Shown here one piece after another: positions 10,505-45,654 of a stretch of 58,359 bases of DNA; the stretch's first letter is position 1; every line of letters starts with the position of its first letter. The notes beneath the pieces are model-generated. The model did not search any database and was not told where the DNA came from. It saw nothing but the letters and a program-made list of their open reading frames with translations. The stretch lies in NCBI GenBank assembly GCA_964400065.1, contig CAYNSM010000002.1:1-58359 (forward strand). Reading direction: 5' to 3'. The DNA comes from an uncultured Planctomycetales bacterium (GTDB lineage: Bacteria; Omnitrophota; Gorgyraeia; Zapsychrales; JANLHA01). The position numbers were made by a program, and so were the translations under genes.

Positions 10505-10849
10505 CTAAACGATGTCCATCAAAGACTTGGCGTCATACAGGCCATCTATGATAAAAACCACCAAATCCGTCGCCCCAAAACTTAACATCGTGCGATTTTC
10601 CAACTTCACATTGCCCAAAATGCGGACTTTGTTAACATGCGTTCCATTGGTGCTGTTTAAGTCCTTGACAAAACAGGCCTCTTTTTCCCAATAAACAACC
10701 GCGTGACTGCGTGAACAAAACTTATCATAATCAATACGAATGTTTGCTTCTTGACCCCGGCCAATCAAAACAGGACAATCAGCTTTCACAAAATATTTAT
10801 GCCCTTTTAAAGGCCCGGTTTTAACAATCAAACAAATTGTTTTATTCAC
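10505..10849 (-). CDS. FHA domain-only protein (phosphothreonine-binding module)
   Basis: 114 aa with a GTG start overlapping the kinase stop (GTGA). The conserved FHA positions are present: IGRG (Gly-Arg), SRSH (SxxH) and STNGTHVN (Asn-Gly). Confidence 0.85.
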   Translation of the reverse strand: MNKTICLIVKTGPLKGHKYFVKADCPVLIGRGQEANIRIDYDKFCSRSHAVVYWEKEACFVKDLNSTNGTHVNKVRILGNVKLENRTMLSFGATDLVVFIIDGLYDAKSLMDIV

Positions 10850-11910: not shown

Positions 11911-11921
11911 GATTTATACTT

Positions 11922-14417: not shown

Positions 14418-14845
14418 GTGCTGACCTTATTGGACTTTTGTATTTTCCCTTGTCCGACAATGACTTCGCCCTGAAAGATCTGGACACCATTAGAACAAAT
14501 AGAAGGCTTTATAGTTTCGATAACACGGCAAACACCTGCGGGAAGGTCATCAACTTCTTCAATATAAATTGCTTTTAAACTACAGCCATCAATATAAATC
14601 TCACCCCTAGGATCATGAATTTCAATATTATATTTTTCAAAAACATGACGCATCCGTTGCATTTGATCAGCAAATGCTTTTTGCGCATCTTTACTTAAAA
14701 AAGAACTCAACTTGCCAAAACGCTTTTCTAAACGCCAAAACTCGACGGCCATCTCAACAAAGAAATCCAAATGGGCTGACTTTTCTTGATTCATAACTTT
14801 CTTACGATTAATGTCTCTCCTTAGTCTAGCGTGCGAAACGTTCAT
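14414..14845 (-). CDS. short GrpE-like putative nucleotide exchange factor
   Basis: 143 aa, or 126 aa if ATG 14794 is the start. The N-terminal half is helical. The C-terminal IEIHDPRGEIYIDGCSLKAIYIEEVDDLPAGVCRVIETIKPSICSNGVQIFQGEVIV follows the GrpE beta-domain pattern (G..fDP..H.A....G.V..V...GY...g.viR.A.V.V). The gene sits between the J-like and Hsp70 genes. Confidence 0.55.
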   Translation of the reverse strand: MNVSHARLRRDINRKKVMNQEKSAHLDFFVEMAVEFWRLEKRFGKLSSFLSKDAQKAFADQMQRMRHVFEKYNIEIHDPRGEIYIDGCSLKAIYIEEVDDLPAGVCRVIETIKPSICSNGVQIFQGEVIVGQGKIQKSNKVST

Positions 14846-23588: not shown

Positions 23589-23598
23589 GCTGGACTCT

Positions 23599-25251: not shown

Positions 25252-25279
25252 GGGTCTTCTCCCCTTTAATAAAATACGA

Positions 25280-26401
25280 TCAACAAATTTGGCAAATCGC
25301 ATCAACCATATAATCAAGTTCTTCTTTCTTTAATCCAGGAAACATCGGCAAGGTAATAATGGATCGGGAAATTCGCTGGGTAACTGGGAGCTTATTATCA
25401 TATTGACTGAAGTTCCTTTGGTAAAAGGCCTGCTCATGTATCGCAGGATAAAAATGGACCGAAGCTTTGACACCTTTTTTATTCAATTCTCTGACAATAA
25501 AATCCCGGCGAGAAACGTCTTTAATCACAATAACAAACATCTGGAACACATGCTCACACCTTTGATCGATAAAGGGAAGCTCAATCCAGTTAAGAGTTTG
25601 CAGCTTTTCAAAAAGATAAGCAGCATGACGCTTGCGCAGTGCGTTTAATCGATCAAGCCGCAATATTTGTGCATACCCAATAGCGGCCAGCACATTGCTT
25701 AACCGAAAATTATATCCGGCATAAGAAGCATTGCGATACCAAGGCGTCTCTCTCTTTTCGCGTTCAAAAGTAGTTGAATCAATGCCATGCGCTAAAAGAG
25801 CTCTGATCATTAAAGCCAAACGATCATCGCTCGTTGTAATCATACCGCCTTCACCACTCGTCATATTTTTTGTTGGAAAAAAAGAAAAACATCCGAAACC
25901 AAACGACCCGGCTTGTTTGCCTTGAAAAGTACCACCTAAGTTTTCAGCAGAATCCTCAATGACATGAAGATTATATTTCTGTGCCAAATGCATAATAATC
26001 TGCATATCAGCGCACTGCCCGGCATAATGGACCGGCATAATCGCCTGTGTCTTATCGGTAATCGCCTTCTCGATAAGCTGCGCATCTATATTATATGTTT
26101 TAGGATCAATATCGACAAAAACAGGCGTAGCACCCGCCGTGATCACAGCATTAGCCGTTGCCACAAACGAAAAACTCGGGATAATAACTTCTCCGGTAAT
26201 ACCTAATGCCTTCAGACACAAAAAAAGGGCTGACGTACACGAATTACAAGTAATCGCATGCTTGACACCAACCACCTTAGCAAATTCTTCTTCCAGCTTA
26301 TGATTGAAAGGGCCATGAGCCAGCCAGCCGGATTCCAACGCCTCTAAAACATACTTCTTTTCCTGATCCGTGATATCAGGAAAACTCAACTTCACTTCCA
26401 T
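25280..26401 (-). CDS. DegT/DnrJ/EryC1/StrS family PLP-dependent sugar aminotransferase
   Basis: 373 aa. FSFFPTKNMTSGEGGMI carries the catalytic lysine, and the N-terminus has EALESGWLAHGP. Confidence 0.9.
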   Translation of the reverse strand: MEVKLSFPDITDQEKKYVLEALESGWLAHGPFNHKLEEEFAKVVGVKHAITCNSCTSALFLCLKALGITGEVIIPSFSFVATANAVITAGATPVFVDIDPKTYNIDAQLIEKAITDKTQAIMPVHYAGQCADMQIIMHLAQKYNLHVIEDSAENLGGTFQGKQAGSFGFGCFSFFPTKNMTSGEGGMITTSDDRLALMIRALLAHGIDSTTFEREKRETPWYRNASYAGYNFRLSNVLAAIGYAQILRLDRLNALRKRHAAYLFEKLQTLNWIELPFIDQRCEHVFQMFVIVIKDVSRRDFIVRELNKKGVKASVHFYPAIHEQAFYQRNFSQYDNKLPVTQRISRSIITLPMFPGLKKEELDYMVDAICQIC

Positions 26402-30037: not shown

Positions 30038-31240
30038 TTAATTTGCCACATGATCGCCTAAAACCTTAATAATTTTATTTTGCTCGGATGCTGTCAATCC
30101 AACAGAAGACGGCAGACTCAAACCTTCACGGTATAGCTTTAATGATTTTTCTATTTTATAAGCGTCGCACCCTTTAAAAGCTTTAAGACTATGCAAAGGA
30201 TGCCAAAAGGGCCGGGCCTGAATTTTTTGCACTTCCAAAATTTTCATCAAGGCCCGGGAATCCATCCCGTATTTTTTGCGATCCACCAAAACTGTATAAA
30301 GCCACCAGATCGATTTTGCCCACGGAGCCTGTTGCGGCAAATGTAAGCCCGGAATCATTTTCAAGAACTCGGTATACTTTTGGGCAATCACAGTTTTTTT
30401 CGCAAGAAAACTCTCCAACTGTTCAAACTGCGCAAGCCCGACCGCCGCCTGCAAATTAGTTAAACGGTAATTGTATCCAATGCTGTTGTGAATGTATTCG
30501 ATAGGATCATCTTTAGCCTGCGTTGTCAAGTAAACGGCTCTCTGCGCAAGTTTTTGTGAATCTGTCAAAAGCATCCCGCCTCCGCCGCAAGTTATAACTT
30601 TGTTGCCATTAAAGCTTAAAACCGCAACATCACCCCATGCTCCTGCTTTCTTCCCGTCAGAGGCGGCACCCAAACTTTCGGCTGCGTCCTCGACAACCGC
30701 CAAATCAAATTTTTCTGCCAATGCCATAATAGGCTTCATGTTCACCGGATGCCCAAGCAAATGTACCGGCAAAAGCGCACGGACCCGACGCTTGGTTTTA
30801 CGATTAATCCATTGGCCTTTTTTACAAACACATTCTTTTGTCAAAAAATCCTGAAGCTTTTGCGGATCGATCTGAAAATACCGCTCATCCACATCCATAA
30901 ACAACGGCCAAGCCCCAATATAGCGAACTGCAAAAGCCGGCGCCGCAAACGTCAAATCTGGGACAATCACTTCCTCATCAGGTTGGATTCCCAAAACTAA
31001 CATGGCCATATGCAAAGCCGCCGTTGCGCTGACGCATGCAACAGCATATTTACGGCCAATAAAACGCGCAGAATATTGCTCAAGCTTTTTGACAAAAGGC
31101 CCAGCCGAAGAAACCCAGCCTGTATCGAGACACTGCTTAACGTACTTCCATTCATTACCGGAAATTTTTGGAACACTTAAAGCAATGAATGGATTACCAG
31201 ACACCTGCGCTATTATGCTCGTACTTGCCAAATTTTTCAT
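30038..31240 (-). CDS. DegT/DnrJ/EryC1/StrS family sugar aminotransferase (LegC/PglE-like candidate)
   Basis: The track start 31273 is TTG; the first ATG is at 31240. SVPKISGNEWKYVKQCLDTGWVSS, with the lysine in LSFNGNKVITCGGGGML. Confidence 0.88.
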   Translation of the reverse strand: MKNLASTSIIAQVSGNPFIALSVPKISGNEWKYVKQCLDTGWVSSAGPFVKKLEQYSARFIGRKYAVACVSATAALHMAMLVLGIQPDEEVIVPDLTFAAPAFAVRYIGAWPLFMDVDERYFQIDPQKLQDFLTKECVCKKGQWINRKTKRRVRALLPVHLLGHPVNMKPIMALAEKFDLAVVEDAAESLGAASDGKKAGAWGDVAVLSFNGNKVITCGGGGMLLTDSQKLAQRAVYLTTQAKDDPIEYIHNSIGYNYRLTNLQAAVGLAQFEQLESFLAKKTVIAQKYTEFLKMIPGLHLPQQAPWAKSIWWLYTVLVDRKKYGMDSRALMKILEVQKIQARPFWHPLHSLKAFKGCDAYKIEKSLKLYREGLSLPSSVGLTASEQNKIIKVLGDHVAN

Positions 31241-31265
31241 TACAGTTAAAACTTTCTGCCCATTT

Positions 31266-32009
31266 TTAATCAACTGTTTTTTTTACATGACAAATAAAAC
31301 TTTGTCCAACAATATGATATGGACACCACGGTTCAAATTCAAAATCCGGATGTTCGTTTACAAATTCTAAAAGAGCCCGTCGTTCTCCTTTCGAAGAATC
31401 AGCGCTAAAAGCATTATATTCATCCATCAATAAAACCGTCCCCTGCTGAATTTTTGGATAAACCAATGCCAAAGCGTCTTTAGCGGATTGGTAAAGATCA
31501 GAATCAATATTAATAATCGCTGCCAACTCCAGAGGCTTAAGCACATTTGGATCAATCTCAGCAAATAATCCTTTAAAAAGCTGACAGGAAACTTTGCGGT
31601 TTTCTAAAAGGATTCGAATCTCGTTTTGCGAACACTTAAACGTTCCCCCTCCATAATTTACGCATCCCTCATCATTAGCGGGAATGCCTTCAAAGGTGTC
31701 AAAACCATAAAACATCGCCTGAAACTGGCGAAAATCACTTATCGCCTTGCGGCGCCATTCTTCCGACGAATTATGTTGAGATTCAGCCCAATGACGATAC
31801 CGCAAATAGGTTTGCCATGAATCCAAAAAACTTTGCCCACGATAAAGACCAAACTCATAATAAGCACCCTTGATGTGATTTGAAAAAATAAACCCCCAAG
31901 CTCTTTCCAACATCCCAAGACGATCATTGCGATGAAGTCGTCCTCGAACAAACTGAAATTTTTCAAGCATCTCATTGATTGTTTTCTTAATCATCCCTAC
32001 ACTCTCCAT
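31266..32009 (-). CDS. TylF/MycF-type class I SAM-dependent (O-)methyltransferase
   Basis: The track start is TTG; ATG at 32009 or 31994. GAYYEFGLYRGQS, FYGFDTFEGIP and INIDSDLYQSAKDALALVYPKIQQGTVLLMDEYN match the TylF family pattern. Confidence 0.7.
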   Translation of the reverse strand: MESVGMIKKTINEMLEKFQFVRGRLHRNDRLGMLERAWGFIFSNHIKGAYYEFGLYRGQSFLDSWQTYLRYRHWAESQHNSSEEWRRKAISDFRQFQAMFYGFDTFEGIPANDEGCVNYGGGTFKCSQNEIRILLENRKVSCQLFKGLFAEIDPNVLKPLELAAIINIDSDLYQSAKDALALVYPKIQQGTVLLMDEYNAFSADSSKGERRALLEFVNEHPDFEFEPWCPYHIVGQSFICHVKKTVD

Positions 32010-32036
32010 TCTTTCACTCAATTGATAAAGTGTTTA

Positions 32037-32828
32037 TTACACAGCCGTCCATCCGCCATCGACCATGACGGTTGCCCCGCTCATATATGAAGAAGCGTCC
32101 GAAGCTAAAAACAAAACTGCTGACGCTATCTCATCAGCGCGTGCCATGCGGCCCAAAGGCGTTTGTTTCACATATTTTCTAACAAATTTTGGGTCTTGGG
32201 CATCTAAAACTCCACCCGGACAAACCGTATTGACCCGGATATTATACCGGCCGTAATAGGAAGCCAAATACCGGCTTAAATTGACGATCCCACCCTTTAC
32301 CACCGAATAAATAATCGGGACAGGTTTAACAGCACTATTTTCGTAAATATCAAATTTCCCGCCGACAATACCATAGATAGACCCCAAGTTAATAATACTG
32401 CCGCCCTTTTTTTTCATATATTTAGCAACGGTTGTACAACAGAAGGCCGTCGCGTTTAATTGGCTGTCCACATTCTGCCGCCACGATTGGGCAGAAACAT
32501 CTTCCGGCAAAACGCCCCAATCTTTGGTTCTGGGATACGCGCAGTTGACCCAAATATCAATGCCTTTTAAATTTTTGGCCAACGCCGCAACATGGCTCTC
32601 TAAATCATCCATTTGCGAAGCATCGAAAGAAAAAAAGGTCACTTTCATTTTGCCACGGGACAAAGCGTCGACGAGTTTTTCCCCAGAGACAACATTGGTA
32701 TCGGCAACAACGACGCTCGCATGAGCCTGCGCAAAAGCTGTCACAATCTCCCTACCCAACAATCCCGCACCGCCGGTAACAACAGCCTTTTTACCCTTGA
32801 GAGTAAATTTTCTTAAATAATCTGTCAT
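32037..32828 (-). CDS. short-chain dehydrogenase/reductase (classical SDR, PtmA-like position)
   Basis: 263 aa with VTGGAGLLG, YSVVKGG (YxxxK) and NTVCPGG. ATGA overlap with the cytidylyltransferase stop. Confidence 0.88.
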   Translation of the reverse strand: MTDYLRKFTLKGKKAVVTGGAGLLGREIVTAFAQAHASVVVADTNVVSGEKLVDALSRGKMKVTFFSFDASQMDDLESHVAALAKNLKGIDIWVNCAYPRTKDWGVLPEDVSAQSWRQNVDSQLNATAFCCTTVAKYMKKKGGSIINLGSIYGIVGGKFDIYENSAVKPVPIIYSVVKGGIVNLSRYLASYYGRYNIRVNTVCPGGVLDAQDPKFVRKYVKQTPLGRMARADEIASAVLFLASDASSYMSGATVMVDGGWTAV

Positions 32829-33544
32829 AACGTAACAACCCCTTTGTTGACTAAAAATTCAATCAATTGAAAGTCCACCTCAGAATCAATATCGAAAGCC
32901 GACCACTCCTGCATTTCCCAAACTAAAGTTTTATCCGACAAACAGGTTTTGGTTTGGGGATTTAAAATAAATTCTCTGTCATAAATATAGATCGAAGCAT
33001 TCATATCATAAACAGCCGGCGCATCCTGCCGTCTCAAAAAAGGTTTGACCGGCGTTTTAACAAGTTTGACAAAACCGTCCTGCTGGGCCTCTAGCATATT
33101 AAAATACGGGTTGCGCCGAGCGTTAGTCGCACTGACAACTGAATCAACCGGCCGCGAAAGAAACAATTGATAGGCACCTTCAATATCGCTGACCCTGCGA
33201 ATCGGCGCAGAAATATCCAAATCGACTATAATCGAATAAACGGTCTTATCCTGCTCCTCGACGGTTCTTAAAGCATGCTGCAAAACCGCAAGTTTCCCCA
33301 TCGAATCTGTTGCCAAATCAGCTGGACGCATGAAGGGAACTTGGGCGCCGTACTGTCTTGCAACTTGGGCAATTTCAGGACTATCAGTTGAACAAATAAT
33401 CTTATTCGCCCGGCCCCAGTTTTGAGCAGCCCTTAAGGTGTGGACGATCAAAGGCTGACCACATAAAATACGGATATTTTTATTTTTAACACCCTTAGAC
33501 CCGCCGCGGCCGCACACAGTTAAAAGAATTTTTGCTTTAGGCAT
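32825..33544 (-). CDS. acylneuraminate cytidylyltransferase family (CMP-nonulosonic acid synthetase, NeuA/LegF-like)
   Basis: 239 aa with CGRGGSKGVKNKNIRILCGQPLIVHT, typical of CTP_transf_3 enzymes. Confidence 0.85.
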   Translation of the reverse strand: MPKAKILLTVCGRGGSKGVKNKNIRILCGQPLIVHTLRAAQNWGRANKIICSTDSPEIAQVARQYGAQVPFMRPADLATDSMGKLAVLQHALRTVEEQDKTVYSIIVDLDISAPIRRVSDIEGAYQLFLSRPVDSVVSATNARRNPYFNMLEAQQDGFVKLVKTPVKPFLRRQDAPAVYDMNASIYIYDREFILNPQTKTCLSDKTLVWEMQEWSAFDIDSEVDFQLIEFLVNKGVVTL

Positions 33545-34466
33545 TTCTAAACTCCAAAATCCTTTTCAAAAGAATTTTTGTTTCTTTTAAATTATTCATT
33601 AGCTTAGGACGACTTAGATTTCTGAAGAAATATTCGGTTTGTTTTTTTAAATATGCATTGCGATCGACAGGAAATTTAAAACTGGATGACTTGCCTTTTA
33701 TTTGACAAACAACCGTATTATTAATCAAATCGCCCCTGATAAATCCATCCTTAAGATCAATTTGAATAGTCCTCTGCCTATCATGACTGGCAAAACTCAG
33801 ATGACAATTAACCACCGCGCCATTTTCCAAAGTAACCAAAGCATCGGCAAAATCCTCACTATCAACCGTAACCTCCCCCATGCGCCCATGGACTCCTGCA
33901 ATGTTCTTTATTTCTCCAAACAAAAAACGGATATAGTCAAATTCGTGCGAAAGATCCAAAATGACCCCGCCTCCCAAAGCCCGATAGGCTGAATAACTTT
34001 TTTTCGAATCCCCAGCCGGCCGCCACGCATGCAGCATCGACGAGCAAACCACGCAAGCATGAACAATTCTTTTACCTTTCAACAAAGATTTGATCTTGCC
34101 AATAACCGGATGAAAACGCAAACAGTAAGCAACATAGACGGCCAAATTCATTTTTTTGCTTATACGCGAAAGCTCCGTAATCCCTTTTAGGGAATCCGAC
34201 AAAGGCTTTTCAATAAAAAGATCCATACCTCGACGGGCACATTGCAAAGCCGTCGGCAAATGCTCACTCGTCGGATTTGTGATAAAAGCGACCTGCGGCT
34301 TTAAAAGGTCAACGTCCTTCCAACGTGTAATTTCAGGAATTCCAAAAAAATTCTTTGATAAGCTTTTACCCGAACGAAAAGCATAAAGTTCATGCTTAAA
34401 GTATTTACGCAAAATCGTAGCGTGGCGCACACCTATGGAACCTAAACCAAAAAAAAGAATTTTCAT
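33537..34466 (-). CDS. Gfo/Idh/MocA family oxidoreductase
   Basis: 309 aa with an N-terminal MKILFFGLGSIGVRH Rossmann motif and an EKPL motif. Confidence 0.85.
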   Translation of the reverse strand: MKILFFGLGSIGVRHATILRKYFKHELYAFRSGKSLSKNFFGIPEITRWKDVDLLKPQVAFITNPTSEHLPTALQCARRGMDLFIEKPLSDSLKGITELSRISKKMNLAVYVAYCLRFHPVIGKIKSLLKGKRIVHACVVCSSMLHAWRPAGDSKKSYSAYRALGGGVILDLSHEFDYIRFLFGEIKNIAGVHGRMGEVTVDSEDFADALVTLENGAVVNCHLSFASHDRQRTIQIDLKDGFIRGDLINNTVVCQIKGKSSSFKFPVDRNAYLKKQTEYFFRNLSRPKLMNNLKETKILLKRILEFRNA

Positions 34467-34480
34467 AATCAGTTTATAAA

Positions 34481-35458
34481 CTACCGCTTGAAAGTTTCTA
34501 AAGCTTTTAAAATATTTGTTGCATCTTCACGGGCGAGCTCTAAGTTTGTCGGATTAATCTTCTTGCCCTCTGGCGGCGTCAAATTCGAACGAAAGCCGCA
34601 AACGATACCCATTCCCTGCAAAATTTTTAAAGTTTCATCATTATAGGAATTTAAAGGATGCGACACACTTACCGTGTCTTGGCCGCAAATACGATAAAGA
34701 TGCTCCTGATTTTTCCTATACTGATCTTTTTGTTTTCGGACTGACAATTGCGCCAACGCAAAAGGATGTGTATACGAATGAAGTCCTATGCAATGACCTA
34801 AAGTGGAAAGTTTTTTAAGTTGCGCGTTTGACATCCAAAGGTTTCTAGCAAGACTTCCTATTGATGTCCCTTTCTCTTTGATCATCCCATCTAAAAGAGC
34901 TTCAAATTTTGTTTGCGATAGCAAATCATTTCTTACAAATCGATATCGTAAATCGTTAAGCGAATAAAACGGGAATATTTCTTTTTTTTGTCTTAGGTAA
35001 CGCAAGAATTCCTTTTCTTTTAACTGTGCCAAAACAGTTTGCGGACAGCGTGAAAAAAAATCGGCATAAAAATCGTCGATCCTACAAAAATATCTTGCCG
35101 CAAAAAAATGATACACTTCCGACTTAACGATTTTTCCCTCAAAAACAGCGGAAAAAACAAACCAAAAAGCTTTAAATCCGTACTTTTCCAAAACCGCAAG
35201 GCCAACATCAAACTGAGAACGTAAACCATCGTCAAAAGTCAAGCAAAGATGATGCCTAGCTAACTTATTTTCTTTAAGCTTAGTCAACCACTCCTCAGGC
35301 GAAAGGATGTTTTTAGGTCCGACATACTCAAGAATTGCCTCCAACTGCTTTGACGTTATGGATCCTTGCCCCGACGGTATTTGGCCTTCCTTATGAAACC
35401 GATGAAACATCAAGCCGTGTGCAAAACTTGCACGGTAACCCTTAGAAGACTCTCTCAT
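34481..35458 (-). CDS. polysaccharide deacetylase (NodB homology) family protein
   Basis: Start moved to ATG 35458, 4 nt after the upstream stop; the track ORF overlaps the neighbour by 68 nt. LTFDDGLRSQ (the D-D metal/catalytic motif) and later HSYTHP. Confidence 0.75.
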   Translation of the reverse strand: MRESSKGYRASFAHGLMFHRFHKEGQIPSGQGSITSKQLEAILEYVGPKNILSPEEWLTKLKENKLARHHLCLTFDDGLRSQFDVGLAVLEKYGFKAFWFVFSAVFEGKIVKSEVYHFFAARYFCRIDDFYADFFSRCPQTVLAQLKEKEFLRYLRQKKEIFPFYSLNDLRYRFVRNDLLSQTKFEALLDGMIKEKGTSIGSLARNLWMSNAQLKKLSTLGHCIGLHSYTHPFALAQLSVRKQKDQYRKNQEHLYRICGQDTVSVSHPLNSYNDETLKILQGMGIVCGFRSNLTPPEGKKINPTNLELAREDATNILKALETFKR

Positions 35459-35462
35459 TGTT

Positions 35463-36701
35463 TTAATCAAAATAACTTTCCAGTTTGCTGTCACGAACTG
35501 TGTCAAGTGTCGCACAATGAATACCGCCACCTTGTGTATAAATGTGCCGCATACGAATCGGAATAACCGTAAACTTATACTGCTCCAGCAAACGAATTAA
35601 ATTTGTTTGACGTTTGTCAACAATGACAGTTTGCGGATCGACCGAAAGGAAATTCATGCCCACCCACGGGGATGCCATATCTTTTAAATTTGTCTCAAAA
35701 CCTAAGGCTGCCAATTGCTGCGCCAGCGGATCACGAACATTTTTTTGAAAATCCAGTTCTTCTTGCGTTGTTGGAGCGACATCACCAAAATAAATCTTGT
35801 CCCATTTTTCAAAAATTTTCGGACAATTCTTTTCATTGACGCGGACATTGTTTAATAGCACAAGCCCTGGCTTTAAGCAAAGTACCGTTGAGTCAATATG
35901 GCTGGATCGATAAATATCCTCCGTTGTATGAACGCGATACTCTTCACCTAAAACACTTTGCAGCCACTTGGCCCCCATATAATTACCCGAGGAAGAAACC
36001 AAATAAAGCAAGTCTTTCCCCATCCGCAAAGTGTTTGCCGCCTCAAAAAGAATTTCCTCTTCACCTAACTTGTGGAGTTTTTCAAGCCGTCCGCCGGTTA
36101 ACTGCTGATACCGCACATCCTCGGGAGTCAAAGAACGCTCATTTTCATCACGATAATACGCCGTCAAAACTTCGCCAGCCAGTTTTGGTTTCGGTCCCGT
36201 GACCCAGCGAAGACCTTTAGCAAAATACTCATACCAGATGTCATACAAAGCGGTCGCTTCATAATAACGGCAGCGCAAAGGTGACGGACTTTCAATAACA
36301 TTATTACCAACAACCAGATGCAGGTCGCGGGTATTATAAATATTGTTGCTCGTTGAAGACCAGTGGGGACAGCAATACATTTGCGTAAGGTCATAAACAT
36401 TCGGACGAAAAACTTTAACACCGCAATTCCTTAACGCATCGCACAACCCTTCTAAATCTTCCCGGATTTCTTCAAGAAACCAATCCGGAAAAGCCTGGCG
36501 AGCCAAAACATACGCTTTTTGTTTAATATCTTCTGGAATCGGACCCGGCTTATTCCACGTTAAAGGCGCCATCGAACCTTGTGCGGTCCCGACAATAACT
36601 TCCCGCAATTTGTCCCACTCATTATGACTGTTGAGCTTTCCTTGAGAAACGGTAACCCCGCAGGCAATTTTTTCATCTACTTTTGCTAAAATATTATTCA
36701 T
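35463..36701 (-). CDS. amidinotransferase (glycine / scyllo-inosamine-phosphate amidinotransferase family, GME superfamily)
   Basis: 412 aa with SD AAGGAG. The N-terminal HNEWDKLREVIVGTA resembles AGAT/StrB1 N-termini. SSHIDSTVLCLKPGLVLLN carries the His/Asp region. The C-terminal GGGIHCATLD carries the catalytic-Cys motif. Confidence 0.75.
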   Translation of the reverse strand: MNNILAKVDEKIACGVTVSQGKLNSHNEWDKLREVIVGTAQGSMAPLTWNKPGPIPEDIKQKAYVLARQAFPDWFLEEIREDLEGLCDALRNCGVKVFRPNVYDLTQMYCCPHWSSTSNNIYNTRDLHLVVGNNVIESPSPLRCRYYEATALYDIWYEYFAKGLRWVTGPKPKLAGEVLTAYYRDENERSLTPEDVRYQQLTGGRLEKLHKLGEEEILFEAANTLRMGKDLLYLVSSSGNYMGAKWLQSVLGEEYRVHTTEDIYRSSHIDSTVLCLKPGLVLLNNVRVNEKNCPKIFEKWDKIYFGDVAPTTQEELDFQKNVRDPLAQQLAALGFETNLKDMASPWVGMNFLSVDPQTVIVDKRQTNLIRLLEQYKFTVIPIRMRHIYTQGGGIHCATLDTVRDSKLESYFD

Positions 36702-36740
36702 CCTATTCTCCTTTCAATCTAAAACCATTCCAAAATAAAA

Positions 36741-37811
36741 TTATATCTTTTTTCCAAAACCGGGGACGCCCTTGTAATACTCATCCCATTGCCCAACATC
36801 GATCCATGAGCGCTCAGGGATCGGGAAAGCGCCAACCCGCAAACCTTTTTTCTTGACTTTAACCACCAGCTCGTTAAAATTTAAAAACTTATTTTTAGGA
36901 ATAAGTGACAAAACTTTCCTGTCCATCACATAAAGTCCGGTATTAACCAACAAATCGTACTCCGGCTTTTCACGGATTTCCTTTAGCCTGCCCCCTTTTT
37001 CTATTTCACAAACGCCATACGGAATCACATAATGCTTGCAAGAAACAATAATTGTCAAATCATATTTCATGTCCTGATGAAAATGCAACAGCTCCGCATA
37101 ATCCACATCAATAAGAACATCACAATTCGTGACAAAAAAAGAATCCTTAAATTTCCCTTCTAACAGCTTAAGACTCCCCACCGTACCCAAAGGTTTATTT
37201 TCCTCCACATAGGTCAAGTGATATCCGGCATTCATTTCCTCAAAATAAGATTTGATCATCCGAGATTTATGATTAACTGAAATAAAAAAATCCTTAATGC
37301 CATATTGATTAAAATTATCCATTATGACTTCAATAACTGGTTTATCTCCAACAGGAATCAAAGGTTTTGGCAAAATACGCGTAAAAGGATCTAGCCGCGT
37401 ACCTTTACCACCAGCCATAATAACGACCGGCACCGTCAATTGTTCTCTATGGGTTTGCGCCTTGCCGGCAAAAATATTCTCCCACGTTAGAACATCAATA
37501 ATCGTATTTTTCTCATCCACGACCGCAATAGCCTGTAGTTTAAAACGCAGCATCGTGTCACGAACAAAATCCTGAGAATAATTTTCGGTAACTTTAATCG
37601 GATTTTTATTACAAATTTTTTCGACTTTATCACGGATCGATCCACCCTTGAGAATCCATTTACGAATGTCCCCGTCGCTTAAAGCACCGACAAGAGATCT
37701 ATCAGCGCTGGTTACAAAAAGTTGTTTGGCACCGATTTCACTTAAATGGCGCATCGCCTGTTTTATCGTCTCGTGCCGATCGATGACAAAATCCTTAATC
37801 CTGCTATCCAT
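36741..37811 (-). CDS. CBS-domain pair + sugar-phosphate nucleotidyltransferase (PtmE-like)
   Basis: 356 aa. The N-terminal ~120 aa form a CBS pair (LFVTSADRSLVGALSDGDIRK...AVVDEKNTIIDVLT). This is followed by MAGGKGTRLDPFTRILPKPLIPV, the NTP_transferase signature. Confidence 0.85.
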   Translation of the reverse strand: MDSRIKDFVIDRHETIKQAMRHLSEIGAKQLFVTSADRSLVGALSDGDIRKWILKGGSIRDKVEKICNKNPIKVTENYSQDFVRDTMLRFKLQAIAVVDEKNTIIDVLTWENIFAGKAQTHREQLTVPVVIMAGGKGTRLDPFTRILPKPLIPVGDKPVIEVIMDNFNQYGIKDFFISVNHKSRMIKSYFEEMNAGYHLTYVEENKPLGTVGSLKLLEGKFKDSFFVTNCDVLIDVDYAELLHFHQDMKYDLTIIVSCKHYVIPYGVCEIEKGGRLKEIREKPEYDLLVNTGLYVMDRKVLSLIPKNKFLNFNELVVKVKKKGLRVGAFPIPERSWIDVGQWDEYYKGVPGFGKKI

Positions 37812-39003
37812 GCTTTTGCGTCCCTTGTAAATTAAAAAATTCTTTTTTTAAAATACGTCCACTGATATTAACACATTTTAATTGTTCCTTAATCCGCTGG
37901 CCTGTTTTTCCATCGGTAAATCGTTCATATGGATTCTTTATTCCCAAAAGTGATCTTCTAAACGATGGCGAAAACGCTTTGGCTATCGCTTTGTTAATCG
38001 CTTTGCTCTCGGATGGGACATCAATGATATTTTTCGCGTGAATACGCCCCTTTTGACGGTCACCAATATTAACAACTGCTAAGCCAAAAGACGGCGCTTC
38101 AATTATCCCGCTTGAAGAATTGCCGATCATAAGATCAAAACTTCGCAAACAGCTCCAATACTTTTGTTGACCAAGATTATCAACAAGACGATAACGAACC
38201 GGATCCGTTTTACAAAACCGCAAAACTTCCTTATTAATAATGCGCCCCTGCGCATCCATATTCGCCTTGGTAAAAACCACTTTTAAACCCGACGCCGAAA
38301 CTGCCGTTAAAACAGCTTTCAAGTGTATCAAAAAAGAATCTCTCTCGAGCGTCGCCGGATGAAAAGTGGCAATAGCACAGCGTCCACTCAAATCAAATTT
38401 CAACGTCGCGGATAACTCGTCCTTGGATAAAAACGCGATCGTCCGCAAGGCATCCAAACCCGGCGCACCAAAATTAAAAACATTCTTCGGCTGCTCCCCT
38501 AATTGAATAATACGCTGACGGTACTGCTCTGTTGCAGCAAAATGGATATGCGCCATTTTTGTCATCCCGTGACGAAACCCTTCATCAAGCGCACCTTCTG
38601 ACGATTCGCCACCATGCAAATGGGCAATAACATGATTTGTACTATAAGCAGCAATCGTTGCCCCAAAAATTTCATAGCGATCACCTAAAACAACAACAAT
38701 ATCCGGATTAAGCCGCGCAAACGTGTCCACGAAGCCGTGACAGGCCAAACCAATGCGTTTTGTAATCCCATGGGGAGAATCATCGAATTTTGATATATTA
38801 ACTTTTGCAGCAATGACAAAACCGTCTTTTTCGATCTGCCGATACGTCTGCCCCTGTTCTTTAGAAAGATGCGAACCGGTTGCAATAATCTGCAATTTGA
38901 TAGCCGAATCCAAAGCGCACGCACGCATCAGACTTTGCAAATGACCGTAATCCGCGCGCGAACCGCTTACGATACAAATTTTTCTTATTTTATTTTTGCC
39001 CAT
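37804..39003 (-). CDS. neuC: UDP/GDP-N-acetylhexosamine 2-epimerase (hydrolysing), NeuC/LegG-like
   Basis: 399 aa with ICIVSGSRADYGHL, VVLGDRYE, AHLHGGE and HFAAT motifs of hydrolysing 2-epimerases. Confidence 0.9.
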   Translation of the reverse strand: MGKNKIRKICIVSGSRADYGHLQSLMRACALDSAIKLQIIATGSHLSKEQGQTYRQIEKDGFVIAAKVNISKFDDSPHGITKRIGLACHGFVDTFARLNPDIVVVLGDRYEIFGATIAAYSTNHVIAHLHGGESSEGALDEGFRHGMTKMAHIHFAATEQYRQRIIQLGEQPKNVFNFGAPGLDALRTIAFLSKDELSATLKFDLSGRCAIATFHPATLERDSFLIHLKAVLTAVSASGLKVVFTKANMDAQGRIINKEVLRFCKTDPVRYRLVDNLGQQKYWSCLRSFDLMIGNSSSGIIEAPSFGLAVVNIGDRQKGRIHAKNIIDVPSESKAINKAIAKAFSPSFRRSLLGIKNPYERFTDGKTGQRIKEQLKCVNISGRILKKEFFNLQGTQKHG

Positions 39004-40013
39004 ACCAAAGTCTCATCCGCCTTAATATTCTTCTGTGCCTGCCGGCCAATGACTTTCTTTATGTCCATAGGAAATATTCCTGTTCCTGGACGTTTTATAA
39101 CAATATCCGAACTTAAAATTTTTTCACCTTTTGCAATATTTCTAACTGCTGTTAAACTTTTACGTGCAGCCAAACGACAAGAAGCTTCACAAAAAGCGGG
39201 AACTTTCTTGCCATTTCCTAACGCACTTTCTACCAAACGGATATTTTCAACCATTTCCTTAAATTCTTTGGGCTCTACCGAGGCACGATGATCCGGACCG
39301 GACAAATTACAATTAATTGTCAAATGTTTTTCAATGACCCTCGCCCCCAAAGCCACAGCAACCGGAGCAATCAAAATCCCGTCGCTATGATCCGAAAAAC
39401 CAACCGGCAGACCAAACGCCTTTTGTAAAGTACCGATCGCCTTTAGGTTCAACTGCGCAAAAGGCGCAGGATAATCCGTGACACAATGCAAAAGAGTCAA
39501 TCGCCTATTCCCGGTTGAAAAGATACTTTTAACGGCCTGACGAACTTCTTGCAAAGTCGACATTCCTGTCGACAAAATCATCGGTTTTCCTTTGTAAGCG
39601 ATATACTTGAGAAATTCCAAATTTGTTATCTCCCCCGAGGGGATCTTAAAAATCTTCATCTGTAATTTATCAAGCAAATCCGAACTTTCCTGATCAAACG
39701 CTGTTGATAAAAATAAAATCTGGTGTTGACGGCAAAACTTAAACAACACCAAATGATCACGAGGACTTAATTCCAGCTCCTTGAGCATGGTAAACTGCGT
39801 TTGATCTTGCGCAGTTAACTTTTTTTGATAGTCCGCTTTCGCGGCCATTGTCGTAACTAAATTCTGTGCCCTGAAAGTCTGAAACTTCACAGCGTCGGCA
39901 CCCGCGGCTTTTGCAGCCTTTATCAACTGCTTGGCAAGACTTAATTTGCCGTTATGATTAACCCCAGCTTCAGCAATAATAAAAGTCCGCAAACCTGCAT
40001 TTGGATTCTTCAT
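38985..40013 (-). CDS. neuB: N-acylneuraminate / legionaminate synthase (NeuB family, PEP-dependent)
   Basis: 342 aa with FIIAEAGVNHNGKLSLAKQLIKAAKAAGADAVKFQTF, GFSDHS and a C-terminal SAF-like domain (IKRPGTGI). Confidence 0.92.
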   Translation of the reverse strand: MKNPNAGLRTFIIAEAGVNHNGKLSLAKQLIKAAKAAGADAVKFQTFRAQNLVTTMAAKADYQKKLTAQDQTQFTMLKELELSPRDHLVLFKFCRQHQILFLSTAFDQESSDLLDKLQMKIFKIPSGEITNLEFLKYIAYKGKPMILSTGMSTLQEVRQAVKSIFSTGNRRLTLLHCVTDYPAPFAQLNLKAIGTLQKAFGLPVGFSDHSDGILIAPVAVALGARVIEKHLTINCNLSGPDHRASVEPKEFKEMVENIRLVESALGNGKKVPAFCEASCRLAARKSLTAVRNIAKGEKILSSDIVIKRPGTGIFPMDIKKVIGRQAQKNIKADETLVWAKIK

Positions 40014-40657
40014 TTTCGACTATGCTTTCTTACGTAAGCGGGAACGCCCATATAAATCCCCGCTTTTTCAATATTCCTAACAACGACCGCTCCGGCACCA
40101 ATCAAGCAATCGCTGGCAATCGAGCAACACTGAATAACCTTAACACCCGTACCCAACAAACAGTTATCTGCGACTTTAACCCCTCCACTTAAAACAGCCC
40201 CCGGAGCAATATGCACAAAATTTCCAATGCAGCAATCATGGTCAATAAGACATCCTGTATTTAAAATTGAGTATTCTCCAACGCGTGTCCCAGCGTTAAC
40301 AACAACAGAATCAAAAACAACTGTCCCCTCACCTAACCGTACATCTTCATTTACAATCGCCGTCGGAGAAACAAGCAAAGGCAGTTGAAAACCCAAATCC
40401 GTTAATTGCGCAACAATCTCCTGCCTCTTATTAGAAAGACTTGTTGTGCCAATCCCCAACGCTGCACTGCAACGATACTTTTTCTTAAGCGTACTTAAAT
40501 CCTTATCACAACCGATCCAAGGAATTTCTAAAATTCTACCCTGATCATGAACATCGACATACCCAATAACCCTAAAGCGCTTGATCTTTTTAATCACGCT
40601 AATAACAGATTTGGCATGCCCACCGCCGCCGAGGACTAAAATATTCTTAACCGCCAT
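40010..40657 (-). CDS. NeuD/PglD-type hexapeptide-repeat N-acetyltransferase
   Basis: The track start is TTG 40678; ATG 40657 gives MAVKNILVLGGGGHAK, typical of NeuD/PglB/PglD proteins. The C-terminus has left-handed beta-helix repeats (IGNFVHIAPGAVLSGGVKVADNCLLGTGVKV). Confidence 0.85.
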   Translation of the reverse strand: MAVKNILVLGGGGHAKSVISVIKKIKRFRVIGYVDVHDQGRILEIPWIGCDKDLSTLKKKYRCSAALGIGTTSLSNKRQEIVAQLTDLGFQLPLLVSPTAIVNEDVRLGEGTVVFDSVVVNAGTRVGEYSILNTGCLIDHDCCIGNFVHIAPGAVLSGGVKVADNCLLGTGVKVIQCCSIASDCLIGAGAVVVRNIEKAGIYMGVPAYVRKHSRK

Positions 40658-40681
40658 AACGCTTAGGACTCCATGCAAAAA

Positions 40682-41656
40682 CTACCTCAATGCGCCTTCA
40701 ATGGTCTTATTAGCCACAGGCGAATTGCTTTTTACTTGTTGAAGTTGCGCAATAAAACTCATCATCCGATAATCTTCGTGAGGATGATTTGTTTTTATCA
40801 ATTGAGCCGCCTGCAAATCATACCCAGCACTTTTTAAAAGCGCCGGATAATGATGCATAAAAAAATTATTCCTAAAAAGAACGCTCTGCTTAAGCTCTTG
40901 GGAAAACTCATAGGTATCAAATGTCTCATGGCTTACGCCAAATTGTTCAAACCCCACGATGTACTTAAACTCAACATCTTTGACAACCTGATATAAGCGT
41001 TGAATAAAACTCCTCGGCAAATACACCAAAGTTCGGGCATGAAAAAAAACGGCATTTGAAAAATTTTTACCCTGTAAATATTCAAAAATGTCGCCAGTAA
41101 TAAACTCCATGTTCTTAACATCCGAAAAACTATCTTCATTAAACATTTGTGTATACTTTGAGCGGTCGATCCCGATAAACTTAACGTCAGGAAACTGCTT
41201 TGCCAAAACACTGTCAACGTAAGCGTAACAAACACCAAAGTTAAAAAATATTTTTATGCTTTTGTCAGATTTAAGCAGCGCAGCAACTTGACTGATGGCC
41301 TGCTCATATAACACAGAGGACTCAGACACAGATTGCGTAAAATCCTTTAATTTTAATTGGTCATAATACTTATATGTGACCATAAGCTCGCGTACTTCGT
41401 CGGCATAACCATATGCCGAACCAAACTTTTGCGCGTCTTTGATATTACCATGCAAAAGAGCGATGGAATCTAAACGACTCTTTTCTTCGTGTCGCAAATT
41501 CCCCAAGAAAATAAACCGATACCCTATGAAGCGAAGCATTTTGCTAAGAAACGGCAATCGATACACCAGCTTTTGAAAAGCCATGCGGCTGGCAAACCGT
41601 ATCCTAAACCACAACGACACCGGAATTCGTAATTCCTTCACATCAACTGCGGCCAT
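40682..41656 (-). CDS. hypothetical protein, possibly a divergent Rossmann-fold methyltransferase
   Basis: 324 aa with strong SD GAGGAGG. The beta-strand/acidic pattern IKIFFNFGVCYAYVD...FIGIDRS...FITGDIF...AVFFHARTLVYLP loosely follows class I methyltransferase motifs I-IV, but there is no GxGxG. Confidence 0.3.
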   Translation of the reverse strand: MAAVDVKELRIPVSLWFRIRFASRMAFQKLVYRLPFLSKMLRFIGYRFIFLGNLRHEEKSRLDSIALLHGNIKDAQKFGSAYGYADEVRELMVTYKYYDQLKLKDFTQSVSESSVLYEQAISQVAALLKSDKSIKIFFNFGVCYAYVDSVLAKQFPDVKFIGIDRSKYTQMFNEDSFSDVKNMEFITGDIFEYLQGKNFSNAVFFHARTLVYLPRSFIQRLYQVVKDVEFKYIVGFEQFGVSHETFDTYEFSQELKQSVLFRNNFFMHHYPALLKSAGYDLQAAQLIKTNHPHEDYRMMSFIAQLQQVKSNSPVANKTIEGALR

Positions 41657-42676: not shown

Positions 42677-43657
42677 TTATGTCGCCGGACAAAATTGATT
42701 CTGAGTTTTTAATAATCGGTTAAAATGCGGCAACGTTTCCGTTAAAAGATAGTGATGGGCCAGCCAGCATTCTTGCAGTGTCGGCAAAGCACAAACATTA
42801 CAGGCAAAAATATCCGAACAAAAAATTTTAGTCGTATAACTGACTCGAATATTTGTCACAACCGGAATTTTTTGCCAAGCCCCACCTTCGATACTTTCCT
42901 CTGCCCAACCGCTTATGACATCGACGACAAACCTCGCGCGGCAAGTTGTAATCGTGACAATATCCGAAGCTAAATGATCAGCAGCATAAGACAGGATAAA
43001 TTTGCCGCCCTTCGAAGAATAGCCGGTCAAAATTCCGCTTAAGTCAAAAAGGTCTTTTCCTCTTTTGGATGGATGCAAAATCGGATCAATCAAAGCTCCT
43101 GCTGGATAAATTTCTGGACTTTGGTCATAGAAACGGAACAGATCAACATAATGAATGCCGTTACAAATCAGGCCGTGATTCCCACCTATTTCGCTAAAAA
43201 TAACCGGTTCATGAGGATCAAGTTTAGACTTGATGTACTGATGAACAGCATAAGACCTAGTTGGACAATTGACCCAAATACTTAAATTCTTTTGCTTTGC
43301 AAAAGCCAAAAGTTCTTGATATTCGCCCACTGACTGAGCAACTAATTTTTCAATAATAAATTTAGTCACACCGGTCTTTTCAAAAATTTCCTTAATCAGT
43401 TTTAAACGACCAAAAGCGGAAGTTGCTAAAATGCAAAGATCAACACTTTGAGAAGAGCTCTCGATTGCCCCAAGCCACCGATAAAGAATTTTTGAATTTT
43501 TATCCGTAAGCTCATTTAGGCGCGCCTGTCCTAAAGCCAAAGAACTCTCATTGCAATCGATCACATCAACGCTGGCAACTTCAGGCAAACACCCAACCGC
43601 CTGCAAGTGGCGACTGCCGATTTGTCCACACCCGACGAGCAAAACCCGTTTAGACAT
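42677..43657 (-). CDS. Gfo/Idh/MocA-like NAD(P)-binding oxidoreductase
   Basis: 326 aa with N-terminal VLLVGCGQIGSRHLQA and an EKL motif. The C-terminal half is divergent. Confidence 0.6.
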   Translation of the reverse strand: MSKRVLLVGCGQIGSRHLQAVGCLPEVASVDVIDCNESSLALGQARLNELTDKNSKILYRWLGAIESSSQSVDLCILATSAFGRLKLIKEIFEKTGVTKFIIEKLVAQSVGEYQELLAFAKQKNLSIWVNCPTRSYAVHQYIKSKLDPHEPVIFSEIGGNHGLICNGIHYVDLFRFYDQSPEIYPAGALIDPILHPSKRGKDLFDLSGILTGYSSKGGKFILSYAADHLASDIVTITTCRARFVVDVISGWAEESIEGGAWQKIPVVTNIRVSYTTKIFCSDIFACNVCALPTLQECWLAHHYLLTETLPHFNRLLKTQNQFCPAT

Positions 43658-44624
43658 TGTAAACCTCGGCTTTATACAAATCTAACCGGCTTTCAAACCA
43701 ATGAATCGTTTCTTTAAGTCCAGATTTAAGATCGACCTGCGGCTTCCAATGGGTAAATTTTTGCAGCTTTGTGCTATCGGCGCATAAACGTTCGACTTCA
43801 CTCTCCTTAACGCGCATTCTTTGATCCTGAGAAATGGCTTGAATATTACAATTTGTCAATGCGCCAATTTCTTTAACCAAATCCGCGACAGAAATTTCCT
43901 GCCCCCATCCGACATTAAGGACTTGGCCGAGAACATCCGAAGCTTGATAAATTTCCCAAAAAGCTTGGGCCGTATCACGAACAAACGTAAAATCTCTCGT
44001 CGGATTAAGATTGCCGAGTTTAATTTGTTTTTGCCCAGATAAAGCCTGGACAATAATGGTTGGAATAATCGCGCGAGCTGATTGCCTAGGACCGTAAGTA
44101 TTAAAAGGACGGACAACTTTGACGGGTAAACCAAATGACCGGTAATAACTCAGCGCCAATTGATCGGCGGCAATTTTGCTGGCCGCATACGGTGATTGCG
44201 CCACCAAAGGATGCTGTTCATTAATCGGCACATATTGGGCGGTGCCATAGGTTTCGCTTGTTGACGTAATTAAAATCTCTTTTAGGTCATGTTCTTTGGC
44301 GGCCTCTAAAATGTTATATGTTCCTTCAATATTTGTTTTGATATACGCCAGCGGCGAAACATAGGAATATGGAATGCCGATAAGAGCAGCCAAATGAAAA
44401 ACTGCGTCGCACCCTTTAATAGCTTTAGAAACACTGTCATAATCGCGAATATCACCGGTTATAATCTCAACATCATTCTTGACATCGCAGTCCTCTAACC
44501 AGCCCCACTGGTTTTTGGAATTGTACCTAACCAAAGCCTTGAGTGCCAATCCTTTCTCAACACACAACTGCATCAAATGCGACCCGATAAACCCAGCCGC
44601 ACCCGTAACAAGAACCTTTTTCAT
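43650..44624 (-). CDS. NAD-dependent NDP-sugar epimerase/dehydratase (candidate LegB-type 4,6-dehydratase)
   Basis: 324 aa with VTGAAGFIGSH, TSTSETYG, YAASKIAADQ and RPFNTYGPRQ. Confidence 0.8.
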   Translation of the reverse strand: MKKVLVTGAAGFIGSHLMQLCVEKGLALKALVRYNSKNQWGWLEDCDVKNDVEIITGDIRDYDSVSKAIKGCDAVFHLAALIGIPYSYVSPLAYIKTNIEGTYNILEAAKEHDLKEILITSTSETYGTAQYVPINEQHPLVAQSPYAASKIAADQLALSYYRSFGLPVKVVRPFNTYGPRQSARAIIPTIIVQALSGQKQIKLGNLNPTRDFTFVRDTAQAFWEIYQASDVLGQVLNVGWGQEISVADLVKEIGALTNCNIQAISQDQRMRVKESEVERLCADSTKLQKFTHWKPQVDLKSGLKETIHWFESRLDLYKAEVYNV

Positions 44625-45628
44625 GCATTACCCTCACACTTTTGAAATTTAATCAACCGGCGAATCAACGACTTTAACTTTACCGCTATAGATTTTTGCA
44701 TGAAATCAAAAATTAAAATCACCCGGCACTGCCATTGCGCCAAAAAACTATACCATTTTTTAAAACGCGGATCACAGCTTTGAAATATCGTAAATATCTT
44801 TTCAAAATCAGCCCTTTGCCCTTTACTCAGAAGCCCCCAACTGACTGTTCGCAAAAATTGCCAGACAAAGTCATAAGCCCAGCGCCGTGTCTTTGAATCA
44901 ATTCTTAAAGGATCATCATGGCGACTGAGTATTATATACATATCTTCAAAACATTTAGGCGATGCGCTTAACGCTGCGCTTGAATTTCCAGGCCATGACC
45001 GCCGACAAGATATAACGTCCTTTAAAAAATAAGCCGCGTCGCCTGCCTTGGTCATACGTAGATACATGTCCGTATCGACAATCCAGTTAAGTCCATAAAT
45101 ATCATACCCGCCAACTTGCTTAACACTCTGAGTACGAAACAAAATTTCACTGGGCGACGGGATATACTTTCCTTGGTAAACCCAGCGATGATATTCCTCG
45201 GCACTAATAAGCCCTCGCAAACCTCTGGTACCGCTAAAAACAAGCTGATTATCTTGCGAATAATGTTCATACGCGCCAGAAACAATACCAACCTGCGGAT
45301 AACTTTCCATAACGGAAACGGTTTTTTCTAAAAAATCTTTTTTATAAAAATCATCCGCGAATAAAATACCGCAATACGGCGTTTGAGATGACTCCAAAGC
45401 CTTTTTCCAATTAGGAAGCATGCCGATATTCGTTTCATTACAAAAATAATGCAAGCGTGCATCAACAAACGAATGAATAATTTCGGCCGTCTTGTCCGTC
45501 GAGCAATTGTCAAAAATATTCAATATAAAATCAGAACGCGTCTGCCGCAAAACCGACTCAATGGCCTGAGCAATAAAACGTTCGCCATTATAAACCGGAA
45601 TAGCGATAGTAGCAATCGGACCCTTCAT
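44621..45628 (-). CDS. GT2 family glycosyltransferase
   Basis: 335 aa with IAIPVYNGERFIAQAIESVLRQT, FDNCSTDKT and a DDF (DxD-like) region. Confidence 0.85.
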   Translation of the reverse strand: MKGPIATIAIPVYNGERFIAQAIESVLRQTRSDFILNIFDNCSTDKTAEIIHSFVDARLHYFCNETNIGMLPNWKKALESSQTPYCGILFADDFYKKDFLEKTVSVMESYPQVGIVSGAYEHYSQDNQLVFSGTRGLRGLISAEEYHRWVYQGKYIPSPSEILFRTQSVKQVGGYDIYGLNWIVDTDMYLRMTKAGDAAYFLKDVISCRRSWPGNSSAALSASPKCFEDMYIILSRHDDPLRIDSKTRRWAYDFVWQFLRTVSWGLLSKGQRADFEKIFTIFQSCDPRFKKWYSFLAQWQCRVILIFDFMQKSIAVKLKSLIRRLIKFQKCEGNA

Positions 45629-45654
45629 GATTTTTTATCTCTTTTCAACAAAGT

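Follow-up and report, generated by a model that had tools for sequence, protein, structure and literature searches.

What would an arginine-dependent amidinotransferase do inside a nonulosonic acid operon? The question is raised by the window analysed here, the whole 58,359-nucleotide (nt) stretch of contig CAYNSM010000002.1 (assembly GCA_964400065.1) from an uncultured bacterium filed under Planctomycetales in GenBank and under Omnitrophota in GTDB. On its minus strand, the gene of a StrB1/AGAT-family amidinotransferase (AT) is immediately followed by that of a de-N-acetylase. We propose, with a probability of roughly 0.6, that the two enzymes act in turn on a legionaminic-acid sugar, by de-N-acetylation and then arginine-dependent amidination, and would thereby produce a guanidino nonulosonic acid. 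The elements of the pair are listed below (aa, amino acids).

35463-36701, minus strand: StrB1/AGAT-family amidinotransferase (AT), 412 aa; open reading frame (ORF), phmmer and fold model.
36708-36713, minus strand: AAGGAG Shine-Dalgarno sequence, 6 nt before the AT ATG; read directly.
35459-35462, minus strand: AACA spacer of 4 nt, from the AT stop codon TAA (35465-35463) to the deacetylase ATG (35458); read directly.
34481-35458, minus strand: CE4/NodB-fold de-N-acetylase, 325 aa; Pfam, homologue alignment and fold model.

The first-pass annotation of this DNA had set a NodB-type deacetylase four nucleotides downstream of the AT gene, within a nonulosonic acid cluster, and both statements are borne out. 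The deacetylase ATG directly follows the AACA spacer, a spacing that suggests translational coupling of the two genes. NeuB, NeuC and NeuD all score above their curated NCBIfam cut-offs. They belong to a tightly packed legionaminic-acid-type operon, embedded in a longer glycan locus, in which the AT and deacetylase genes sit between ptmE and ptmF. The genes that define this setting are the following.

40010-40678, minus strand: NeuD/LegH-type N-acetyltransferase; TIGR03570, 203 bits (cut-off 161).
38985-40013, minus strand: NeuB/LegI nonulosonic acid synthase; TIGR03569, 444 bits (cut-off 400).
37804-39003, minus strand: NeuC/LegG hydrolysing 2-epimerase; TIGR03568, 431 bits (cut-off 236).
36741-37811, minus strand: PtmE-like CBS and sugar-1-phosphate nucleotidyltransferase, upstream border of the variable tailoring slot; domain match.
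33537-34466, minus strand: PtmF-like GFO/IDH/MocA oxidoreductase, downstream border of the slot; domain match.

An indication of function comes from what relatives keep in this slot. We compared the source genome, which is 77% complete, with 30 relatives, eight of them of the same genus. AT occurs in none of the 30, so the source genome is the only carrier among the 31 searched; NeuB is found in 25 of the relatives, and five congeners hold an orthologue 72-78% identical. Two genomes of the same genus, G001 and G003, have an operon syntenic with this one gene by gene, its proteins sharing 64-79% identity; their ptmE-ptmF slot is filled by WbuZ (HisF-like; TIGR03572, 266 bits), a HisH-like glutaminase and WbuX (TIGR03573, 347 bits; cut-off 203). 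In G005, WbuX is placed between ptmE and legF. Altogether, WbuX lies above its cut-off and 3.3-4 kb from the orthologous NeuB in G001, G002, G003 and G005.

The WbuX model TIGR03573 (N-acetyl sugar amidotransferase) has no match in the window, and WbuX is not found in the source genome at its 77% completeness. AT and the deacetylase thus stand in for the acetamidino module at the same position of the same operon, as expected if both modules act on one N-acetyl group and turn it into a cationic group. The attribution of known acetamidino groups to WbuX/PseA-type amidotransferases, made before this comparison, agrees well with it: the congeners hold the WbuX module in the very slot of the AT/deacetylase pair. 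Both the overall GC content of the two genes and that at third codon positions (GC3) do not differ from those of the rest of the operon, giving no compositional sign of recent transfer.

The 412-aa protein carries the three hallmarks of arginine-dependent amidinotransferases that had been noticed in its sequence, namely HNEWDKLREVIVGTA, SSHIDST and GGGIHCATLD. Searched with phmmer against all PDB sequences, it matches StrB1 (PDB 1bwd) over its full length at E 1.1e-77, followed by SxtG (3e-49), HsvA (3e-48) and AGAT (2e-46), with the family spanning 1e-44 to 1e-49; no hydrolase appears among these matches at E <= 0.01. Pfam recognizes in it the C-terminal motif of the arginine deiminase (ADI) family alone, at 22.8 bits, which is why most members of the AT family are publicly annotated as hypothetical.

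An AlphaFold model of AT, built from 12 sequences of its clade (see below), has a pLDDT of 83. It displays a pentein fold, a fivefold beta-beta-alpha-beta propeller, with a region modelled at low confidence around residues 176-215 and a clade-specific 43-residue segment, 303-345, that includes a helix at 313-332. In Foldseek, the model superposes best on 1bwd (E 3e-34, TM-score 0.83 by target) and matches AGAT, HsvA and SxtG at about 1e-29; all amidinotransferases fall between 1e-28 and 3e-34, against only about 1e-10 for arginine deiminase and DDAH. By sequence and by fold, AT is nearer to amidinotransferases than to these hydrolases, with which it could have grouped.

Cys396 of AT, in the C-terminal GGGxHC motif, aligns with StrB1 Cys332 and is invariant in the clade; His268 aligns with His227 and is kept in 75 of 76 clade rows; Glu220 aligns with Asp179, the third, acidic position. 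We take Cys332, His227 and Asp179 to be the published StrB1 triad, and their numbers agree with the printed alignment coordinates. The Asp-His-Cys triad anticipated by the first-pass annotation is consequently confirmed for its cysteine and histidine, not for its acid, which is glutamate instead of aspartate. Isolated exceptions aside, Cys396, His268, Asp126, Asp270, Arg287 and Ser344 are invariant across the 76 rows. The last four are predicted to bind the arginine donor; in AGAT, the residues holding the guanidinium and the carboxylate of arginine are presumably Asp170, Asp305, Arg322 and Ser355. Arg287, by its position after the GLVLLN strand, should match the carboxylate-binding Arg322. 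Judged from its sequence, AT is a member of the AGAT/StrB1 amidinotransferase family whose active site is predicted to be intact.

The downstream protein is recognized by Pfam as Polysacc_deac_1 (E 4.6e-17). Its true start is the ATG at 35458: homologues from three phyla align only from there. A longer ORF from GTG 35530, overlapping AT, was rejected as an over-extension, with no homologue aligning upstream of 35458. The motifs TFDDG (Asp76, Asp77) and HSYTHP (His227, His231) are invariant in 27 of 27 homologues; by comparison with the TFDD and HSxxH motifs, Asp76 is the catalytic residue, and Asp77, His227 and His231 are the metal ligands. His19, Arg290, Arg310 and Asp312 are likewise invariant. 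The canonical C-terminal LxH (motif 5), carrying the catalytic-acid histidine, is absent, and its role may fall to the invariant His19 in MFHxFH near the N-terminus; we presume an analogy with the permuted catalytic histidine of PgaB.

The deacetylase model (pLDDT 93) is a deformed (beta/alpha) barrel. Its best fold match is PplD (6dq3; E 2e-12, TM-score 0.78 by target), then PgaB, IcaB and BpsB, down to 3e-8, whereas acetylxylan esterases give far weaker and partial matches. As de-N-acetylases and not O-acetyl esterases are nearest, we assign the enzyme to the PplD/PgaB type. An all-helical insert of about 100 residues (around 104-205) has no counterpart in the PplD, PgaB, IcaB and BpsB structures; it would close the groove for a small substrate. 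A predicted complex of AT with the deacetylase scores 0.02, which gives no verdict.

How widely is the pair kept together? More than 1100 relatives of AT are found at E <= 1e-5, and the best 120 share 69-91% identity despite their origin in many phyla. The order AT-deacetylase recurs within clusters of NeuB, NeuC, PglD, PtmE, PtmF, PtmA and CMP-synthetase genes in genomes of Lentisphaerae, Burkholderiales and Acidobacteria, often alongside a methyltransferase of 400 aa. We surveyed one genome per species, which gave 80 named loci scored by tblastn with the proteins of the window, and built a FastTree phylogeny of the surveyed loci and 60 cluster representatives. Short peptides of StrB1, AGAT, SxtG and HsvA found no exact match among the tree rows, and the outgroup is therefore left unnamed.

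One AT clade (support 100, branch length 0.65) contains all loci with NeuB or the deacetylase within 10 kb, and neither is present in the 11 loci outside it. NeuB lies at this distance in 45 of the 67 surveyed loci of the clade. Both the survey and the gene contexts confirm that AT, NeuB and the deacetylase are conserved together in many phyla, as the first-pass annotation had implied. Two Acidobacteriota loci, L009 and L010, were considered as a use of AT outside nonulosonic acid loci and rejected: on the same contig, the deacetylase lies 13 kb and NeuB 23 kb away.

Three subclades can be distinguished. Subclade A (30 rows) includes the window; subclade B (17 rows) consists mostly of bacteria of the Candidate Phyla Radiation (CPR), together with an archaeon. 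Of the 45 loci in A and B, 38 have the deacetylase, usually encoded on the AT strand and no more than tens of bases away, and 26 have the 400-aa methyltransferase. The deacetylase is missing from subclade C (26 rows), which includes the cultured Calothrix sp. NIES-2100 (L057, 9998-11149). Here, in loci L035-L073, AT stands directly downstream of PseI, in clusters of the order PseB-PseC-PseF-PseG-PseI-AT-methyltransferase, the last gene usually being that of a small class-I enzyme. Among 111 same-strand neighbour ORFs of subclade C, NeuB accounts for 12 and DegT for 10, and acetyltransferase families fall outside the 25 commonest; AT may take the place of an N-acetyltransferase in these clusters.

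The triad acid divides along the same line. Position 220 is glutamate in 30 of 30 rows of subclade A and 16 of 17 of subclade B (46 of 47 together), and aspartate in 25 of 26 rows of subclade C. Outside the clade, 99 homologues have aspartate in 89 cases and glutamate in 10. The Glu/Asp split tracks the presence of the deacetylase, and glutamate for aspartate is a conservative change.

From the above, we propose a two-step reaction. First, the metal-dependent CE4 enzyme would strip one N-acetyl group from the legionaminic-acid sugar, probably at a late stage, when the nonulosonic acid is free or CMP-activated, and probably at N5; stage and position are less certain than the mechanism. N5 is the position that bears acetamidino in Campylobacter and Legionella systems. 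Second, according to the chemistry of the family, AT would take up the amidino group from L-arginine, binding it covalently to Cys396 as an isothiourea, with release of ornithine, and would pass it on to the freed sugar amine, leaving a guanidino group. The net change would be from N-acetyl to guanidino, which puts a positive charge beside the sugar carboxylate as the known acetamidino does, so that the module would be a functional alternative to that of WbuX/PseA/PtmG. That the pair is another route to acetamidino itself was rejected on chemical grounds: the amidino group of arginine has no methyl carbon.

The predicted product, C12H22N4O7, has a mass of 334.1488 and is 0.0112 Da heavier than di-N-acetyl legionaminic acid (Leg5Ac7Ac), since CH2N2 (42.0218) takes the place of C2H2O (42.0106). 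If the guanidino form exists, low-resolution surveys would miss it, only 11 mDa above the di-N-acetyl form. The first-pass annotation's reading of the AT/deacetylase pair is supported, because the checks fixed beforehand, on the triad, on the grouping and on co-conservation, did not speak against it; what we infer are donor and acceptor, the position modified, which step comes first, and the guanidino sugar that would result.

Several points weigh against a guanidino nonulosonic acid made in this way. Nearly all carriers are uncultured, which leaves no glycan structure to match. The triad acid of AT is glutamate, not aspartate. Free-amine intermediates of the pathway exist, GDP-glucosamine (GDP-GlcN) and the LegC product, and could serve as acceptors with no deacetylase; the deacetylase-less subclade shows that AT does not always need one. 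Finally, no more than 10 kb separates WbuX from AT in 9 of the 80 loci: the two modules are not strictly alternatives, and their exchange is no universal rule.

Co-occurrence of WbuX/WbuZ with AT is seen in L011, L015, L027, L029, L037, L041, L045, L054 and L061. Clusters of this kind may make sugars bearing both modifications.

Unlikely in our view, AT could amidinate an early free-amine intermediate, either GDP-glucosamine from the adjacent PtmE or the 4-amino sugar of LegC, leaving the deacetylase a separate job, such as supplying a sugar with a free amine or modifying a different residue of the polymer. The position of AT directly after ptmE agrees with this, and the pseudaminic-type clusters of subclade C, with no deacetylase and few acetyltransferase families nearby, suggest that AT could replace an N-acetyltransferase on a pathway amine. 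However, the deacetylase adjoins AT in most loci of subclades A and B, here across a 4-nt spacer, and the triad acid changes with its presence; both facts speak for consecutive action of the two enzymes. LegB, LegG and LegI would moreover need to accept a guanidino sugar.

Still less convincing is the idea that the amine accepted by AT belongs to glycine, lysine or a polyamine and not to a sugar (compare AGAT and HsvA), yielding a small guanidino compound that is then attached to the freed sugar amine or has nothing to do with the glycan. Characterised members of the family do differ widely in their acceptors, and the acceptor is not readable from sequence; but the pair has no conserved ligase or acyl-activating enzyme beside it, the clade, unlike the homologues outside it, occurs in nonulosonic acid loci only, and StrB1, the closest relative, uses a sugar-like amine. 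As for AT being a hydrolase, a deiminase or amidinohydrolase of an amidino or guanidino substituent, we regard it as highly improbable: Cys-His-Glu, as in subclades A and B, is the triad of the hydrolases arginine deiminase and DDAH, and the Pfam hit is to an ADI motif, but sequence searches match amidinotransferases only, fold E-values favour these by about 18 orders of magnitude, glutamate also occurs in homologues outside the clade, and Arg287, presumably the equivalent of AGAT Arg322, is invariant within it.

We thus retain de-N-acetylation followed by amidination as our preferred reading of the pair. A broader proposal, to which we would give even odds, is that an undescribed cationic guanidino-legionaminic acid (guanidino-pseudaminic in the sister subclade) decorates the surfaces of many uncultured, abundant microbes, by way of an arginine-dependent module swapped in and out of the acetamidino slot. 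The carriers named for this are SAR11, Prochlorococcus, CPR bacteria, DPANN archaea and Acidobacteriota. Nonulosonic acids shape surface charge, recognition by phages and lectins, and immune evasion, and to our knowledge acetamidino is the only known bacterial means of neutralising their carboxylate. An arginine-derived route, if true, would extend both the range of natural sugar modifications and the classes of acceptor used by amidinotransferases, and would account for a conserved pair of 'hypothetical proteins' in very abundant environmental lineages. The exchange with WbuXYZ offers a clean genetic design for testing it, and the near-isobaric mass is a guide for mass spectrometrists.

The remaining genes of the operon are given here in the order of the minus strand.

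43650-44624: 4,6-dehydratase-like gene; two GFO oxidoreductases belong to the same operon.
40682-41656, minus strand: 324-aa ORF with no Pfam or NCBIfam match.
32825-33544, minus strand: CMP-nonulosonic acid synthetase; CTP_transf_3.
32037-32828, minus strand: PtmA-like short-chain dehydrogenase; family-level domain match.
31266-32021, minus strand: TylF-like methyltransferase, between ptmA and legC.
30038-31273, minus strand: DegT-family aminotransferase, LegC-like.

PtmE, PtmF and PtmA, accessory genes typical of the GDP-N-acetylglucosamine (GDP-GlcNAc) route, are all matched by domain; the PtmA model NF050062 scores 155 bits, under its cut-off of 350, and the PtmA call stands at family level only. 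The usual 400-aa methyltransferase of the cassette has no homologue in the window by tblastn, and the three-gene form of the cassette does not apply here as such. Both the TylF-like methyltransferase and the 324-aa ORF are missing from the operons of the congeners, the former being absent at that place in G001 and G003. Homologues of the 324-aa ORF (46-49% identity) directly adjoin AT in L022 (9073-9987) and L034 (7373-8296), one a Leptospiraceae and one an Omnitrophota locus. Its language-model look-alikes are methyltransferases, and its PDB profile matches are all methyltransferases too, but at E 0.06-0.6; hhalign with the 400-aa methyltransferase gives a probability of 0.2%, showing no relation. 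We consider the 324-aa ORF a candidate divergent class-I S-adenosylmethionine-dependent methyltransferase and possibly the third gene of the cassette.

Ornithine carbamoyltransferase is encoded directly after AT in the Acidobacteriota locus L009 (11358-12257, plus strand) and near AT in L081, a Prochlorococcus single-cell locus (11528-12391, minus strand). Its presence fits ornithine as the by-product of an arginine-dependent transfer, which the enzyme may recycle in these two loci. In L007, a 734-aa fusion of a methyltransferase with AT (P0121; 6402-8606, plus strand) adjoins NeuB; it is known from this single contig and could be an artefact of assembly or gene calling. Upstream of the fusion lie a PIG-L deacetylase, a formyltransferase and a radical-SAM enzyme, and L007 also has a TylF-like gene.

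The minus strand of the window is one long glycan locus, with an initiating Bac_transf sugar transferase, several glycosyltransferases, a Wzy_C-like protein and an ATP-binding cassette (ABC) exporter; no flagellar glycosylation genes are seen in it. Two ORFs without Pfam match, of 723 and 572 aa (21465-23636 and 23599-25317, minus strand), adjoin the Wzy_C-like protein (19735-21486) and may be polymerase- or transferase-like membrane proteins of the locus. A second sugar-tailoring block at 44621-53649 (minus strand) comprises a GT2 glycosyltransferase, dehydratases, epimerases, a nucleotidyltransferase and an ABC exporter, as well as a flavin amine oxidase-like protein (45655-46941) and a 537-aa DegT aminotransferase with an N-terminal extension. 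Beside the glycan locus, at 10846-14417 (minus strand), are a Ser/Thr protein kinase (354 aa) and an 831-aa Hsp70/MreB-like protein; another ORF without Pfam match, of 731 aa, is at 14826-17021.

How does the pair compare with known systems? Our literature search found no link of an amidinotransferase to legionaminic, pseudaminic, nonulosonic or sialic acid clusters, and no description of a guanidino sugar of this kind. New in this work are the exchange of the acetamidino slot in congeners, the test of the clade against outgroup loci, the Glu/Asp split, the PplD/PgaB type of the deacetylase and the candidate third gene.

StrB1, the L-arginine:scyllo-inosamine-4-phosphate amidinotransferase of streptomycin biosynthesis, is the best match of AT in sequence and fold, with the cysteine, the histidine and the substrate residues kept; its acceptor, an amino-cyclitol phosphate, is a sugar-like primary amine. 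AT differs from it by Glu220 in place of Asp179, by the extra segment 303-345 and a longer region 176-215, by its partner deacetylase and by its nonulosonic acid operon, rather than an aminoglycoside cluster. AGAT (creatine), SxtG (saxitoxin) and HsvA (polyamine) share its family and fold but are more distant than StrB1, and their acceptors are amino acids, polyketide-like amines or polyamines.

The deacetylase has the fold, the Asp-His-His metal site and the catalytic aspartate of PplD and of the CE4 de-N-acetylases of GlcNAc polymers, PgaB, IcaB and BpsB. Unlike them (9-17% identity), it carries the helical insert, belongs to an operon and is cytoplasmic, and presumably acts on a monosaccharide or nucleotide sugar, not on a polymer. 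For this first step there is a direct precedent. CMP-nonulosonic acids of Ca. Kuenenia stuttgartiensis with a free amine and with formyl are traced to a cluster of the legionaminic type that encodes a deacetylase along with a formyltransferase, and the authors conclude that deacetylation takes place at the nucleotide-sugar level (SugarBase preprint, 10.64898/2026.04.20.719630). Deacetylation followed by redecoration of nucleotide sugars therefore exists; in that case, unlike here, the new group is formyl or none, the preprint does not say which type of deacetylase acts, and an amidinotransferase plays no part.

A functional parallel is the acetamidino module itself, WbuX/PseA/PtmG with the HisH/HisF-like WbuY and WbuZ. 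It occupies the same ptmE-ptmF slot and likewise converts N-acetyl to a cationic group of the amidine type, with unrelated proteins: ammonia is added once the acetamide carbonyl has been activated, and the result is CH3-C(=NH)-NH-. In contrast, AT and its deacetylase would exchange the acetyl group for H2N-C(=NH)- taken from arginine.

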